Part shown: positions 1 to 32,610 of the stretch, in pieces
How positions within the stretch are numbered: position 1 is the first letter of the stretch
Layout of the letters: every line of letters starts with the position of its first letter
NCBI RefSeq assembly: GCF_044324875.1
Contig: NZ_CP172185.1
Length of the DNA: 64,000 bases
Reading direction: 5' to 3' (one strand)
Source of the DNA: Escherichia coli
Lineage (GTDB): Bacteria > Pseudomonadota > Gammaproteobacteria > Enterobacterales > Enterobacteriaceae
The notes under the pieces: model-generated
What the model saw: only the letters and a program-made list of their open reading frames with translations
The model's database searches: none
What the model was told of the DNA's origin: nothing
Program-made: the position numbers and the translations under genes

Positions 1-931
1 ATCGGCACGCGGTGATATTTCCCTGACCTATTTCGAGTACGGTACGCTGTCGGCGTTGTGGCTGTTCAAGCAGGCACAACTTGACGTGGTGATTCTGGAA
101 GTAGGGCTGGGCGGTCGTCTGGACGCAACCAATATTGTCGATGCCGATGTCGCGGTAGTAACCAGTATTGCGCTGGATCATACCGACTGGCTGGGGCCAG
201 ATCGCGAAAGCATTGGTCGCGAGAAAGCAGGCATCTTCCGCAGCGAAAAACCGGCAATTGTCGGTGAGCCGGAAATGCCTTCTACCATTGCTGATGTGGC
301 GCAGGAAAAAAGTGCACTGTTACAACGTCGGGGCGTTGAGTGGAACTATTCCGTCACCGATCATGACTGGACGTTTAGCGATGCTCACGGCACGCTGGAA
401 AATCTGCCGTTGCCGCTTGTCCCGCAACCGAATGCCGCAACGGCGCTGGCGGCACTGCGTGCCAGCGGGCTGGAGGTCAGTGAAAATGCCATTCGCGACG
501 GGATTGCCAGCGCAATTTTGCCGGGACGTTTCCAGATTGTGAGCGAGTCGCCACGTGTTATTTTTGATGTCGCGCATAATCCACATGCGGCGGAATATCT
601 CACCGGGCGTATGAAAGCGCTACCGAAAAACGGGCGCGTGCTGGCGGTTATCGGTATGCTACATGATAAAGATATTGCCGGAACTCTGGCCTGGTTGAAA
701 AGCGTGGTTGATGACTGGTATTGTGCGCCACTGGAAGGGCCGCGCGGTGCCACGGCAGCACAACTGCTTGAGCATTTGGGTAACGGCAAATCATTTGATA
801 GCGTGGCGCAGGCATGGGATGCCGCAATGGCGGACGCTAAAGCGGAAGATACCGTGCTGGTGTGTGGTTCGTTCCACACGGTCGCACATGTCATGGAAGT
901 GATTGACGCGAGGAGAAGCGGTGGCAAGTAA
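1..931 (+). CDS. folC: folylpolyglutamate synthase / dihydrofolate synthase, 3' portion (5' end upstream of window)
   Basis: Reading frame open from the left edge to the stop at 931; track gives the C-terminal 291 aa ending ...IDARRSGGK; Mur-ligase-like C-terminal domain; followed by dedD-cvpA-purF as in E. coli. Confidence 0.9.
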   Translation, partial: SARGDISLTYFEYGTLSALWLFKQAQLDVVILEVGLGGRLDATNIVDADVAVVTSIALDHTDWLGPDRESIGREKAGIFRSEKPAIVGEPEMPSTIADVAQEKSALLQRRGVEWNYSVTDHDWTFSDAHGTLENLPLPLVPQPNAATALAALRASGLEVSENAIRDGIASAILPGRFQIVSESPRVIFDVAHNPHAAEYLTGRMKALPKNGRVLAVIGMLHDKDIAGTLAWLKSVVDDWYCAPLEGPRGATAAQLLEHLGNGKSFDSVAQAWDAAMADAKAEDTVLVCGSFHTVAHVMEVIDARRSGGK

Positions 932-1571
932 GTTTCAGAATCGGTTAGTGGGCACGATCGTGCTGGTGGCGCTGGGGGTGATTGTACTTCCAGGGCTGCT
1001 GGACGGGCAGAAAAAACATTATCAGGATGAGTTCGCGGCTATCCCGCTGGTGCCAAAAGCAGGCGATCGCGATGAGCCTGATATGATGCCAGCCGCCACC
1101 CAGGCGCTGCCGACGCAGCCGCCGGAAGGCGCAGCGGAAGAGGTGCGGGCAGGTGATGCCGCAGCACCGTCGCTCGATCCGGCCACTATTGCAGCCAATA
1201 ACACCGAGTTTGAACCGGAACCTGCACCGGTCGCCCCACCGAAGCCGAAACCGGTGGAGTCGCCTAAACCGAAGGTTGAAGCACCACCTGCGCCGAAGCC
1301 GGTCGTGGAAGAAAAAGCAGCGCCAACGGGTAAAGCCTATGTTGTACAACTGGGCGCACTGAAAAATGCCGATAAAGTGAATGAGATTGTCGGTAAGCTG
1401 CGCGGTGCCGGTTATCGGGTTTATACGTCGCCATCCACGCCAGTGCAGGGTAAAATTACCCGTATTCTGGTTGGGCCAGATGCCTCGAAAGATAAGCTGA
1501 AAGGTTCGCTGGGTGAGTTGAAGCAACTTTCTGGCTTAAGTGGTGTGGTAATGGGCTACACGCCGAATTAA
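903..1571 (+). CDS. dedD: cell division protein DedD (SPOR domain)
   Basis: 222 aa ORF with N-terminal TM segment, Pro/Ala/Lys-rich linker and C-terminal SPOR-like domain; start ambiguous: ATG at 903 or GTG at 921, which sits 5 nt after an AGGAG at 911-915. Confidence 0.85.
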   Translation: MTRGEAVASKFQNRLVGTIVLVALGVIVLPGLLDGQKKHYQDEFAAIPLVPKAGDRDEPDMMPAATQALPTQPPEGAAEEVRAGDAAAPSLDPATIAANNTEFEPEPAPVAPPKPKPVESPKPKVEAPPAPKPVVEEKAAPTGKAYVVQLGALKNADKVNEIVGKLRGAGYRVYTSPSTPVQGKITRILVGPDASKDKLKGSLGELKQLSGLSGVVMGYTPN

Positions 1572-1850: not shown

Positions 1851-1882
1851 ATTGCACGATGCCGCAAAGGCATAAAAAGTCG

Positions 1883-1918
1883 ATGGCGTTGAATATTTTT
1901 TCAGCGCCATTTTTATTG
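1883..1918 (+). terminator. candidate rho-independent terminator after dedD
   Basis: Imperfect hairpin ggcgttgaa...ttcagcgcc followed by a T-rich run (atttttatt). Confidence 0.45.
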
Positions 1919-1939
1919 ATGCGTGGGAAGGAAATCCCT

Positions 1940-1955
1940 ACGCAAACGTTTTCTT
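1940..1955 (+). promoter_or_regulatory. PurR operator (pur box) overlapping the cvpA-purF promoter
   Basis: acgcaaacgttttctt matches the 16 bp PurR box consensus ACGCAAACGTTTTCNT; a -10-like tagaat follows at 1963-1968, about 45 bp before the cvpA start. Confidence 0.8.
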
Positions 1956-2011
1956 TTTCTGTTAGAATGCGCCCCGAACAGGATGACAGGGCGTAAAATC
2001 GTGGGACACAT

Positions 2012-2500
2012 ATGGTCTGGATTGATTACGCCATAATCGCGGTGATTGCTTTTTCCTCTCTGGTTAGCCTGATCCGCGGCTTTGTTCGTGAAGCGTTATC
2101 GCTGGTGACATGGGGTTGTGCTTTCTTTGTTGCCAGTCATTACTACACTTACCTGTCAGTCTGGTTTACGGGCTTTGAAGACGAACTGGTTCGAAATGGG
2201 ATTGCCATCGCGGTACTGTTTATCGCTACCCTGATCGTTGGTGCTATCGTGAACTTCGTGATAGGCCAGTTGGTAGAGAAAACGGGGTTGTCAGGCACCG
2301 ATCGGGTGCTGGGCGTCTGTTTCGGTGCGTTGCGCGGTGTGTTGATTGTTGCCGCCATTCTCTTCTTTCTCGACTCCTTTACCGGGGTGTCGAAAAGCGA
2401 AGACTGGAGCAAATCACAGCTGATCCCCCAGTTCAGTTTTATCATCAGATGGTTTTTTGATTATCTGCAAAGCTCGTCAAGTTTCTTGCCCAGAGCGTAA
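2012..2500 (+). CDS. cvpA: colicin V production / membrane protein CvpA
   Basis: 162 aa multi-TM protein immediately upstream of purF, the conserved cvpA-purF-ubiX arrangement. Confidence 0.9.
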   Translation: MVWIDYAIIAVIAFSSLVSLIRGFVREALSLVTWGCAFFVASHYYTYLSVWFTGFEDELVRNGIAIAVLFIATLIVGAIVNFVIGQLVEKTGLSGTDRVLGVCFGALRGVLIVAAILFFLDSFTGVSKSEDWSKSQLIPQFSFIIRWFFDYLQSSSSFLPRA

Positions 2501-2536: not shown

Positions 2537-4054
2537 ATGTGCGGTATTGTCGGTATCGCCGGTGTTATGCCGGTTAACCAGTCGATTTATGATGCCTTAA
2601 CGGTGCTTCAGCATCGCGGTCAGGATGCCGCCGGCATCATCACCATAGATGCCAATAACTGCTTCCGTTTGCGTAAAGCGAACGGGCTGGTGAGCGATGT
2701 ATTTGAAGCTCGCCATATGCAGCGTTTGCAGGGCAATATGGGCATTGGTCATGTGCGTTACCCTACGGCTGGCAGCTCCAGCGCCTCTGAAGCGCAGCCA
2801 TTTTACGTTAACTCTCCGTATGGCATTACGCTTGCCCACAACGGCAATCTGACCAACGCGCATGAGTTACGTAAAAAACTGTTTGAAGAAAAACGCCGCC
2901 ACATCAACACCACTTCCGACTCGGAAATTCTGCTTAATATCTTCGCCAGCGAGCTGGACAACTTCCGCCACTACCCGCTGGAAGCCGACAACATTTTCGC
3001 CGCCATCGCTGCTACAAACCGCTTAATCCGCGGCGCGTATGCCTGTGTGGCGATGATTATCGGCCACGGTATGGTTGCTTTCCGCGATCCAAACGGGATT
3101 CGTCCGCTGGTACTGGGAAAACGTGATATTGACGAGAACCGCACAGAATATATGGTCGCTTCCGAAAGCGTTGCGCTCGATACACTAGGCTTTGATTTCC
3201 TGCGTGACGTCGCGCCTGGCGAAGCGATTTACATCACTGAAGAAGGGCAGTTGTTTACCCGTCAATGTGCTGACAATCCGGTCAGCAATCCGTGCCTGTT
3301 TGAGTATGTATACTTTGCTCGCCCGGACTCGTTCATCGACAAAATTTCCGTTTACAGCGCGCGTGTGAATATGGGCACGAAGCTGGGCGAGAAAATTGCC
3401 CGCGAATGGGAAGATCTGGATATCGACGTGGTGATCCCGATCCCGGAAACCTCGTGTGATATCGCGCTGGAAATTGCTCGTATTCTGGGCAAACCGTACC
3501 GTCAGGGCTTCGTTAAAAACCGCTATGTAGGCCGTACCTTCATCATGCCGGGTCAGCAGCTGCGTCGTAAGTCCGTGCGCCGTAAACTGAACGCCAACCG
3601 CGCCGAGTTCCGCGATAAAAACGTCCTGCTGGTCGACGACTCCATCGTCCGTGGCACCACTTCTGAGCAGATTATCGAGATGGCACGCGAAGCCGGAGCG
3701 AAGAAAGTGTATCTCGCTTCTGCGGCACCGGAAATTCGCTTCCCGAACGTTTATGGTATTGATATGCCGAGCGCCACGGAACTGATCGCTCACGGTCGCG
3801 AAGTAGATGAAATTCGCCAGATCATCGGTGCTGACGGGTTGATTTTCCAGGATCTGAACGATCTGATCGAAGCCGTTCGCGCTGAAAACCCGGATATCCA
3901 GCAGTTTGAATGCTCGGTGTTCAACGGCGTCTACGTCACCAAAGATGTTGATCAGGGCTACCTCGATTTCCTCGATACTTTACGTAATGACGACGCCAAA
4001 GCCGTGCAACGTCAGAACGAAGTGGAAAATCTCGAAATGCATAACGAAGGATGA
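2537..4054 (+). CDS. purF: amidophosphoribosyltransferase
   Basis: 505 aa; N-terminal MCGIVGI (Ntn amidotransferase Cys1) and PRTase-type C-terminal domain. Confidence 0.97.
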
Positions 4055-4148
4055 TGCCTTCGCTCAGGGTGCCGGTCTGGCACCCTGACTTGCAACTCCC
4101 GCCGAAATCCTGCAAAGTCTGCCTGCAAGTCTGACAGGGCAACTATTT

Positions 4149-4718
4149 ATGAAACGACTCATTGTAGGCATCAGCGGTGCCAGCGGCGCGATTTATGGCG
4201 TGCGCTTATTACAGGTTCTGCGCGATGTCGCAGATGTTGAAACGCATCTGGTAATGAGCCAGGCCGCGCGCCAGACCTTATCTCTTGAAACGGATTTTTC
4301 CCTGCGCGAAGTGCAGGCGTTAGCTGATGTGACGCACGATGCGCGCGATATTGCTGCCAGCATCTCTTCTGGTTCTTTCCAGACGCTGGGGATGGTGATT
4401 TTACCCTGTTCAATCAAAACCCTGTCCGGCATTGTCCATAGCTATACTGATGGCTTACTGACCCGTGCGGCAGATGTGGTGCTGAAAGAGCGTCGCCCGT
4501 TGGTGCTCTGCGTACGTGAAACACCATTGCACTTAGGCCATCTGCGTTTAATGACTCAGGCAGCAGAAATCGGTGCGGTGATTATGCCTCCCGTTCCGGC
4601 GTTTTATCATCGCCCGCAATCCCTTGATGATGTGATAAATCAGACGGTTAACCGTGTACTCGATCAATTCGCCATAACGCTTCCTGAAGATCTCTTTGCC
4701 CGCTGGCAGGGCGCATAA
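4149..4718 (+). CDS. ubiX: flavin prenyltransferase UbiX
   Basis: 189 aa, N-terminal MKRLIVGISGASGAIYGVRLL flavoprotein fold; position after purF. Confidence 0.93.
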   Translation: MKRLIVGISGASGAIYGVRLLQVLRDVADVETHLVMSQAARQTLSLETDFSLREVQALADVTHDARDIAASISSGSFQTLGMVILPCSIKTLSGIVHSYTDGLLTRAADVVLKERRPLVLCVRETPLHLGHLRLMTQAAEIGAVIMPPVPAFYHRPQSLDDVINQTVNRVLDQFAITLPEDLFARWQGA

Positions 4719-4727
4719 CTCCGCTGT

Positions 4728-4748
4728 TGCCCTGTTTCAGGGCAATTT
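4728..4748 (+). terminator. candidate hairpin terminator after ubiX
   Basis: Inverted repeat ttgccctg-tttc-agggcaa directly after the ubiX stop; weak T-tract. Confidence 0.4.
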
Positions 4749-4899
4749 TGCAACCGCGATCAAATCCTCGACATTTTGTTTCTGCCATTCAATCGAAACG
4801 CTGCGATTCAACCGCTATACCTGCTATCTTCAACTTCAGGACAATAATGCAACGTCTTATTAACATATTTAACGTTGAATGTTACTGTTGTCGTAATGA

Positions 4900-28918: not shown

Positions 28919-30721
28919 ATGGTGAACAATATGACCGACTTAACCGCGCAAGAACCCGCCTGGCAGACCCGCGATCATCTTGATGATCCGGTGATTGGCG
29001 AACTGCGCAACCGTTTTGGGCCGGATGCCTTTACTGTTCAGGCGACTCGCACCGGGGTTCCCGTTGTGTGGATCAAGCGTGAACAATTACTGGAAGTGGG
29101 CGATTTCTTAAAGAAACTGCCGAAACCTTACGTCATGCTGTTTGACTTACACGGCATGGACGAACGTCTGCGCACACACCGCGAAGGGTTACCTGCCGCG
29201 GATTTTTCCGTTTTCTACCATCTGATTTCTATCGATCGTAACCGCGACATCATGCTGAAGGTGGCGCTGGCAGAAAACGACCTGCACGTACCGACCTTCA
29301 CCAAACTGTTCCCGAACGCTAACTGGTATGAGCGTGAAACCTGGGATCTGTTTGGCATTACTTTCGACGGTCACCCGAACCTGCGCCGCATCATGATGCC
29401 GCAAACCTGGAAAGGTCACCCGCTGCGTAAAGATTATCCGGCGCGCGCTACCGAATTCTCGCCGTTTGAGCTGACCAAAGCCAAACAGGACCTGGAGATG
29501 GAAGCCCTGACCTTCAAACCGGAAGAGTGGGGGATGAAGCGCGGCACCGAAAACGAGGACTTCATGTTCCTCAACCTCGGCCCGAACCACCCGTCGGCGC
29601 ACGGGGCTTTCCGTATCGTTTTGCAGCTCGATGGCGAAGAGATTGTCGACTGCGTACCAGACATCGGCTACCACCACCGTGGTGCGGAGAAAATGGGCGA
29701 GCGCCAGTCCTGGCATAGCTACATTCCGTATACCGACCGTATCGAATACCTCGGCGGCTGCGTTAACGAAATGCCTTACGTGCTGGCTGTAGAGAAACTG
29801 GCCGGGATCACCGTGCCGGATCGCGTTAACGTCATTCGCGTAATGCTTTCTGAGCTGTTCCGCATCAACAGCCATCTGCTGTATATCTCCACCTTTATTC
29901 AGGACGTCGGCGCGATGACGCCAGTGTTCTTCGCCTTTACCGATCGTCAGAAAATTTACGATCTGGTGGAAGCAATCACTGGTTTTCGTATGCACCCGGC
30001 GTGGTTCCGTATTGGCGGCGTAGCGCACGACCTGCCGCGTGGCTGGGATCGCCTGCTGCGTGAGTTCCTCGACTGGATGCCGAAACGTCTGGCGTCTTAC
30101 GAGAAAGCGGCGCTGCAAAACACCATTCTGAAAGGTCGTTCCCAGGGCGTTGCCGCCTATGGCGCGAAAGAGGCGCTGGAGTGGGGCACCACCGGCGCGG
30201 GCCTGCGTGCTACCGGGATCGACTTCGACGTGCGTAAGGCGCGTCCGTATTCTGGCTATGAAAACTTCGACTTTGAAATTCCGGTGGGCGGTGGTGTTTC
30301 TGACTGCTACACCCGCGTAATGCTGAAAGTAGAAGAGTTGCGCCAGAGTCTGCGCATTCTTGAGCAGTGCCTCAACAACATGCCGGAAGGCCCGTTCAAA
30401 GCGGATCACCCGCTGACCACGCCGCCGCCGAAAGAGCGCACGCTGCAACATATCGAAACCCTGATCACCCACTTCCTGCAAGTGTCGTGGGGTCCGGTGA
30501 TGCCTGCCAATGAATCCTTCCAGATGATTGAGGCGACCAAAGGGATCAACAGTTACTACCTGACCAGCGACGGTAGCACCATGAGTTATCGCACCCGTAT
30601 CCGCACGCCGAGTTATGCGCATTTGCAGCAAATTCCGGCGGCGATCCGCGGCAGCCTGGTGTCTGACCTGATTGTTTATCTGGGCAGTATCGATTTTGTT
30701 ATGTCAGATGTGGACCGCTAA
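28919..30721 (+). CDS. nuoC: NADH-quinone oxidoreductase subunit C/D (fused)
   Basis: 600 aa single ORF covering the 30 kDa (C) and 49 kDa (D) subunit homologues. Confidence 0.95.
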
Positions 30722-32558: not shown

Positions 32559-32610
32559 CCGAATTTCGATTAACGCTCAGTCTCTGACTGAGAAAACTGG
32601 AAGCATGCTA

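Follow-up and report, generated by a model that had tools for sequence, protein, structure and literature searches.

Does the DNA upstream of cvpA and purF in this Escherichia coli genome contain an operator through which PurR represses purine synthesis, and is it the purF operator known from K-12? We addressed this in a stretch of 64,000 nucleotides (assembly GCF_044324875.1, contig NZ_CP172185.1), which we refer to as the window. It begins within folC, followed by dedD-cvpA-purF-ubiX-argT-hisJQMP with every gene on the + strand, and the gene order is identical to that in the K-12 MG1655 record. Megablast located the region, annotated dedD / cvpA / purF, in 5,425 of 5,426 complete E. coli genomes. 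E. coli carries purR; the gene lies outside the 64-kb window. The features discussed below are collected in Table 1.

Table 1. Positions of the genes, control elements and hairpins of the cvpA-purF region in the window.
Feature	Positions	Strand	Description and basis
dedD	921–1571	+	216 codons versus 220 in K-12, implying a 4-codon length difference
Intrinsic terminator of dedD	1882–1916	+	12-bp stem and T tract; terminator scan; fold −18 kcal/mol, z = −5.0
Phylogenetic footprint	1930–1968	+	39 consecutive columns with major allele at least 97% in 80 genomes, anchored on the operator
PurR operator (pur box) ACGCAAACGTTTTCTT	1940–1955	+	Sequence, statistics, identity with the K-12 ChIP-chip site, conservation
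Extended −10 element TGtTAGAAT	1960–1968	+	TG at 1960–1961, hexamer at 1963–1968; read from the sequence
GC-rich discriminator GCGCCCC and transcription start	1969–1976	+	Start at 1975 (nuclease mapping) or 1976 (5′-RACE)
cvpA	2012–2500	+	Annotated colicin V production protein; first gene of the controlled transcript; ATG at 2012
purF	2537–4054	+	Amidophosphoribosyltransferase; starts 36 nt past cvpA, no terminator between
GC-rich hairpin TCAGGGTGCCGGTCTGGCACCCTGA	4064–4088	+	Just past the purF stop codon; 11-bp stem, −19.5 kcal/mol, no T tract
ubiX	4149–4718	+	Annotated third operon gene; flavin prenyltransferase for ubiquinone synthesis
Hairpin UUGCCCUGUUUCAGGGCAA	4726–4750		9-bp stem followed by UUUUG, just past the ubiX stop codon

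The first-pass annotation of this DNA had read a PurR operator, acgcaaacgttttctt, at 1940–1955 and a −10-like tagaat 8 bp further downstream. Both are present exactly as read, with tagaat at 1963–1968; seven bases (1956–1962) intervene, and the hexamer starts eight positions past the operator. Compared with the perfect palindrome ACGCAAACGTTTGCGT, the 16-mer agrees at 14 of 16 positions, and its central CpG lies at 1947–1948. The left half-site ACGCAAAC equals the PurR consensus at 8/8 positions, whereas the right half-site GTTTTCTT differs from GTTTGCGT at two positions. The earlier wording "consensus" was therefore right for the left half and slightly generous for the non-consensus right half. 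The ChIP-derived motif ACGNAAACGTTTGCNT is matched at 13 of its 14 specified positions.

We then estimated how often such a site would appear by chance. The operator is the sole match to ACGCAAACGTTTGCGT in the window with three or fewer mismatches. At this tolerance chance would yield 0.61 matches per window; at two or fewer mismatches, the expectation falls to 0.06, and 5 of 100 shuffled windows contained one. A position weight matrix was built from the 27 other PurR motifs found by ChIP-chip (Table 1 of Cho et al, 2011, PMC3159470), with the cvpA-purF entry left out against circularity. The operator scored 21.95 bits with this leave-one-out matrix, which ranks it among the higher-scoring half of bound sites (range 12.0–25.3), and it stands 8.7 bits above anything else in the 64 kb, the second-best match scoring 13.26 bits. 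Among 500 first-order Markov windows of 64 kb, only one reached 21.95 bits (maxima: mean 15.6, sd 2.0). The matrix scan, which the first-pass annotation had proposed as a check, thus returned a value within the range of bound sites and above background. Matches at 29005, 17932 and 21809 (11.7–13.3 bits) fall below the mean maximum of the random windows, 15.6 bits, and we dismissed them as chance.

Comparison with K-12 identified the site. Read on the opposite strand, the 16-mer is exactly AAGAAAACGTTTGCGT, which ChIP-chip assigned as the motif to the PurR-binding region of cvpA-purF-ubiX at 2,428,842–2,428,857 (PMC3159470), so the earlier attribution of the operator to cvpA-purF was correct. 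These U00096.2 coordinates correspond to 2,430,820–2,430,835 of NC_000913.3 and agree once the 1,978-bp offset between the genome versions is taken into account. When window positions 1860–2040 were aligned to NC_000913.3, a single difference was observed, T at 1924 in place of C in K-12, upstream of the operator. The 16 bp, the spacer, the −10, the discriminator, the 5′ UTR and the distance to the cvpA ATG (the operator beginning at −72) are all the same in K-12, as is the dedD-cvpA-purF-ubiX neighbourhood. What differs is base 1924 and the REP/BIME units of the dedD–cvpA spacer, neither of which touches the operator. The 16-mer is the purF operator itself, which is already known, and the differences from K-12 lie outside the site. 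We take this operator to be the archetype that was used in defining the pur regulon and in solving PurR–DNA structures.

Binding of PurR to the identical sequence is documented in the literature. In K-12, ChIP-chip detected PurR at cvpA-purF only when exogenous adenine was supplied (PMC3159470), and purified PurR shifted a cvpA-purF fragment of EHEC spanning −171 to +56 in EMSA (PMC5829826). The PurR (Pur-1) iModulon includes cvpA-purF (PMC8376909). For the strain analysed here, binding would be expected by identity of the site. No observation spoke against binding by PurR. Purine repression of the transcript, as proposed in the first pass, agrees with the bound K-12 site of identical sequence, membership in the PurR iModulon and the position of the transcription start.

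The dedD–cvpA spacer in which the site is located measures 440 bp in the window versus 258 bp in K-12. It contains three tandem 91-bp REP/BIME units (97% alike) at 1579–1847, two more than K-12, and two of the units, at 1634–1704 and 1725–1795, are matched by the Rfam family naRNA4 (RF02564). Rfam family RF01748, the cis-regulatory nuoG RNA motif, is matched at 32561–32603 (50.3 bits), inside the nuo region of the window. The dedD terminator ends only ~ 25 bp upstream of the operator and insulates the cvpA promoter from transcription coming from upstream. A genomic SELEX screen placed a weak RpoN holoenzyme peak (31–32%) in the dedD/cvpA spacer, at 2,429,072 of K-12 U00096.2 (PMC8743547), and this corresponds to about 1500–1900 in the window. 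Inspection by eye revealed no obvious −24/−12 motif of the TGGCAC-N5-TTGCA type near the operator.

The relation of the operator to the promoter follows from the mapped transcription start. Start site cvpAp1 was placed at −37 from the cvpA start codon by nuclease mapping (Makaroff, 1985; Nonet, 1987) and at −36 by 5′-RACE (Mendoza-Vargas et al, 2009, PMC2760140). In the latter study its −10 was assigned as GTTAGAAT (also given as ttctGTTAGAATgcgc) and no −35 was given; TAGAAT of the window is this assigned −10 (PMC2760140). Counted back from the ATG, the start falls at 1975/1976, 7–8 nt past TAGAAT and downstream of the operator, which is the order that the first-pass annotation had predicted. 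Relative to this start, the operator covers about −36 to −21. The combination of TGn with a TATAAT-like hexamer, a start 7–8 nt downstream and no acceptable −35 marks a sigma-70 promoter of the extended −10 class; ACGCAA and TACGCA come closest to a −35, yet they agree with TTGACA at just 2–3 of 6 positions. A generic −35/−10 scan, in which no hexamer matched TTGACA at 4 or more of 6 positions, did not call the cvpA promoter because the promoter is of the extended −10 type without an acceptable −35. We rejected this miss as an argument against the promoter, since the start is mapped and the −10 carries a TG extension. The discriminator ends in CCCG at −3/+1, a sequence noted for Eσ70-preferred promoters in a run-off array study that scored all of cvpA, purF and ubiX as σ70-preferred in vitro (PMC3141248). 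We also considered a leader or attenuator in the 5′ UTR (1975–2015) and discarded it, as the fold was no better than chance (z = +0.13).

To see how the site has been maintained, we scanned a genome collection for CvpA and obtained 80 species-level Enterobacteriaceae loci; these are the 80 closest relatives, with Yersinia, Serratia, Vibrio and Pasteurella outside the sample. Upstream DNA sufficed for analysis in 79 of the loci; in these, the best matrix match was located 70–75 nt upstream of the cvpA ATG, and the operator read ACGCAAACGTTTTCTT in 78 of these 79 species. The lone variant carries an A7 to T change, and the validated sites of tsx and glyA contain this base too. The footprint given in Table 1 comprises a 10-bp upstream flank, GGAAATCCCT, the operator, the spacer and the −10, and the discriminator and start region (1969–1976) is likewise conserved across species. 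As a baseline, third-codon positions of cvpA have a mean major-allele frequency of 0.79, only 20% of them reach at least 0.97, and they diverge from the window by a median of 31%. Among E. coli strains, 5388 of 5425 complete genomes carry one copy of the 47-bp core (1930–1976), with 100% identity.

Two parts of the conserved block deserve separate mention. The flank GGAAATCCCT (1930–1939, about −46 to −37) is as invariant across the 80 genomes as the operator; it could be a contact of the RNA polymerase alpha subunit (UP-like), the edge of the PurR footprint or the site of another factor. The imperfect right half (1949–1955, TTTTCTT versus TTTGCGT) is invariant in 79/79 species. Its imperfection appears to be maintained, by a tuned repressor affinity or by a constraint on the promoter spacer.

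PurR is a dimer of the LacI/GalR family whose binding to DNA needs a purine corepressor (PMC5866929, PMC4052901, PMC6245113). Insertion of its hinge helices into the minor groove, at the centre of the operator, gives a DNA bend of about 50° (PMC5866929). PurR sites as a rule fall in the −35 to −10 interval, and their effect is on initiation (PMC3159470). Applied to this locus, these properties suggest the following sequence of events. When hypoxanthine or guanine is abundant, the corepressor-loaded PurR dimer would bind the 16-bp imperfect palindrome at 1940–1955, its hinge helices would enter the minor groove at the CpG at 1947–1948 and the DNA would bend by about 50°. From a dimer at −36 to −21, the TG that extends the −10 would be five bases away. 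Because the operator covers this part of an extended −10 promoter, bound PurR would occlude RNA polymerase: it would take up the DNA that the enzyme needs upstream of the −10, and initiation of cvpA-purF mRNA would be blocked. We infer that steric exclusion of RNA polymerase is the most likely repression step.

The cvpA-purF operator shares the 16-bp palindrome, the central CpG and the range of matrix scores with the operators of purT, purHD, purL, purEK, purMN and purC, which conform to ACGNAAACGTTTGCNT. The half-sites of purT and purHD are stronger than GTTTTCTT. Its location between −35 and −10 is that of 44% of PurR-regulated promoters (PMC3159470). It differs from the operators of purB and purR, where PurR acts as a roadblock at a site downstream of the start (PMC3159470), and from that of carAB, where the PurR site is far upstream (PMC6245113). 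With LacI and the lac operator O1 it has in common a dimer of the LacI/GalR family, a helix-turn-helix with a hinge helix, kinking of the central CpG by that helix, and an operator that overlaps the promoter region (PMC5866929). The response to ligand is reversed, however, as PurR needs its ligand, the corepressor, to bind DNA whereas LacI is released by its ligand, and the DNA bend is about 50° for PurR versus about 40° for LacI (PMC5866929). In contrast to lac, the cvpA-purF operator stands alone, and neither auxiliary operators nor looping are involved.

Operator and promoter overlap at this locus, and sequence conservation by itself does not tell the constraint on one from that on the other. 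We therefore considered whether the block might be constrained purely as a promoter, through RNA polymerase contacts, spacer and an UP-like flank, with a likeness to the pur box that has no regulatory effect. Such a reading would account for an operator that lies wholly within the promoter (−36 to −21), for a conserved block (1930–1968) that exceeds the 16-mer at both ends, and for a non-consensus right half that is T-rich spacer DNA. It does not explain why the left half, which is invariant, fits PurR perfectly (8/8) yet makes a poor −35 (2–3/6 to TTGACA), given that extended −10 promoters need no specific −35; judged from the sequence, this half points to selection for the operator. Classic operator-constitutive mutants of purF are also relevant, as point mutations in them reportedly abolish purine repression while promoter strength is kept. 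The site identical in K-12 is, moreover, bound in adenine-dependent ChIP-chip (PMC3159470) and in EMSA (PMC5829826), and cvpA-purF belongs to the PurR iModulon (PMC8376909). We consider a promoter-only explanation very improbable. That a short degenerate palindrome was matched by chance is less probable still, to the point of being negligible. At three or fewer mismatches the expectation of 0.61 per window would leave room for such a match, but it is 0.06 at the two mismatches observed, and the matrix score was reached in one of 500 simulated windows. The site is also located 20 bp upstream of the transcription start for the first committed purine gene, is invariant in 78 of 79 species where neutral positions vary, and has published binding data.

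A further reading is that the site is shared with another LacI/GalR regulator, RbsR being the closest paralogue. This would add to regulation by PurR and not exclude it. Some promoters of purine genes are reportedly bound by RbsR. PurR stems from a duplication of RbsR and "retained the motif" (PMC4052901), and the core AAACGTTT is common to both. The flanking ACGC arm, on the other hand, is of the PurR type, and PurR ChIP together with the purR-dependent iModulon suffices to explain the regulation, so we regard a role for RbsR here as improbable. With these alternatives weighed, we assign a probability of about 0.97 to the reading in which the 16-mer serves the E. coli purine regulon as its purF (cvpA-purF) operator, at which PurR with its corepressor blocks initiation.

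Does the operator also define the transcript? The first-pass annotation had taken it to confirm the operon structure. This part overreached, as an operator alone cannot do so; the co-transcription of cvpA and purF that it proposed nevertheless fits the sequence. The two genes are on the same strand and separated by 36 nt with neither a terminator nor a significant fold (z = −0.05), and the gap is 34–38 nt in most of the 80 related genomes. On these sequence grounds, co-transcription of cvpA and purF appears well supported.

The position of ubiX is less straightforward. Synteny with ubiX holds in 70 of the 80 genomes, and the purF–ubiX spacer is 94 nt long with the hairpin at 4064–4088 at its start. 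This hairpin is a candidate partial terminator or 3′-end stabiliser. When the window was compared with 79 related genomes, nearly all of these 80 sequences had a stable hairpin (median −20 kcal/mol) that starts 5–20 nt past the purF stop codon; the structure is kept while the stem sequences are quite different. In 17 of the 80, mostly Klebsiella and Raoultella, the hairpin is followed by a T tract, as in a canonical terminator. Behind it, TTGCAA (4090–4095) is conserved in most genera, and GCAAAGT is conserved at 4112–4118. Past ubiX, the unit likely ends at the hairpin at 4726–4750, whose short T run explains why the terminator scan missed it.

Published data on ubiX point in different directions. 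The published transcription unit is cvpA-purF-ubiX (PMC3159470), and in vitro run-off ratios were alike for cvpA, purF and ubiX (PMC3141248). The Pur-1 iModulon list names cvpA-purF and ubiX is absent from it (PMC8376909), and in a transcriptome meta-analysis cvpA and purF were down-regulated and ubiX up-regulated (PMC9501238). The accessible part of the SMRT-Cappable-seq supplementary tables has no entry for cvpA, purF or ubiX. That ubiX is on the PurR-controlled transcript is plausible, and this placement rests on the published annotation, not on the operator; promoter-level evidence says nothing on where a transcript ends. Tentatively, the hairpin behind purF could be a partial terminator or 3′-end element and TTGCAA with GCAAAGT a separate weak ubiX promoter, so that ubiX would be largely uncoupled from PurR, a possibility that we consider real although we lean against it.

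The site matters as a correct annotation, and its rediscovery brings nothing new. Its value is that of a positive control, as a reader without tools located a real regulatory element to single-base accuracy. For the biology of the locus, two consequences would follow if the more tentative observations hold. Were ubiX largely uncoupled from PurR, the textbook cvpA-purF-ubiX unit would become cvpA-purF plus read-through or an independent ubiX. GC-rich discriminators are typical of promoters that are inhibited by ppGpp/DksA; if ppGpp/DksA acts via the conserved discriminator GCGCCCC(G), stringent control would add to the control of cvpA-purF by PurR.
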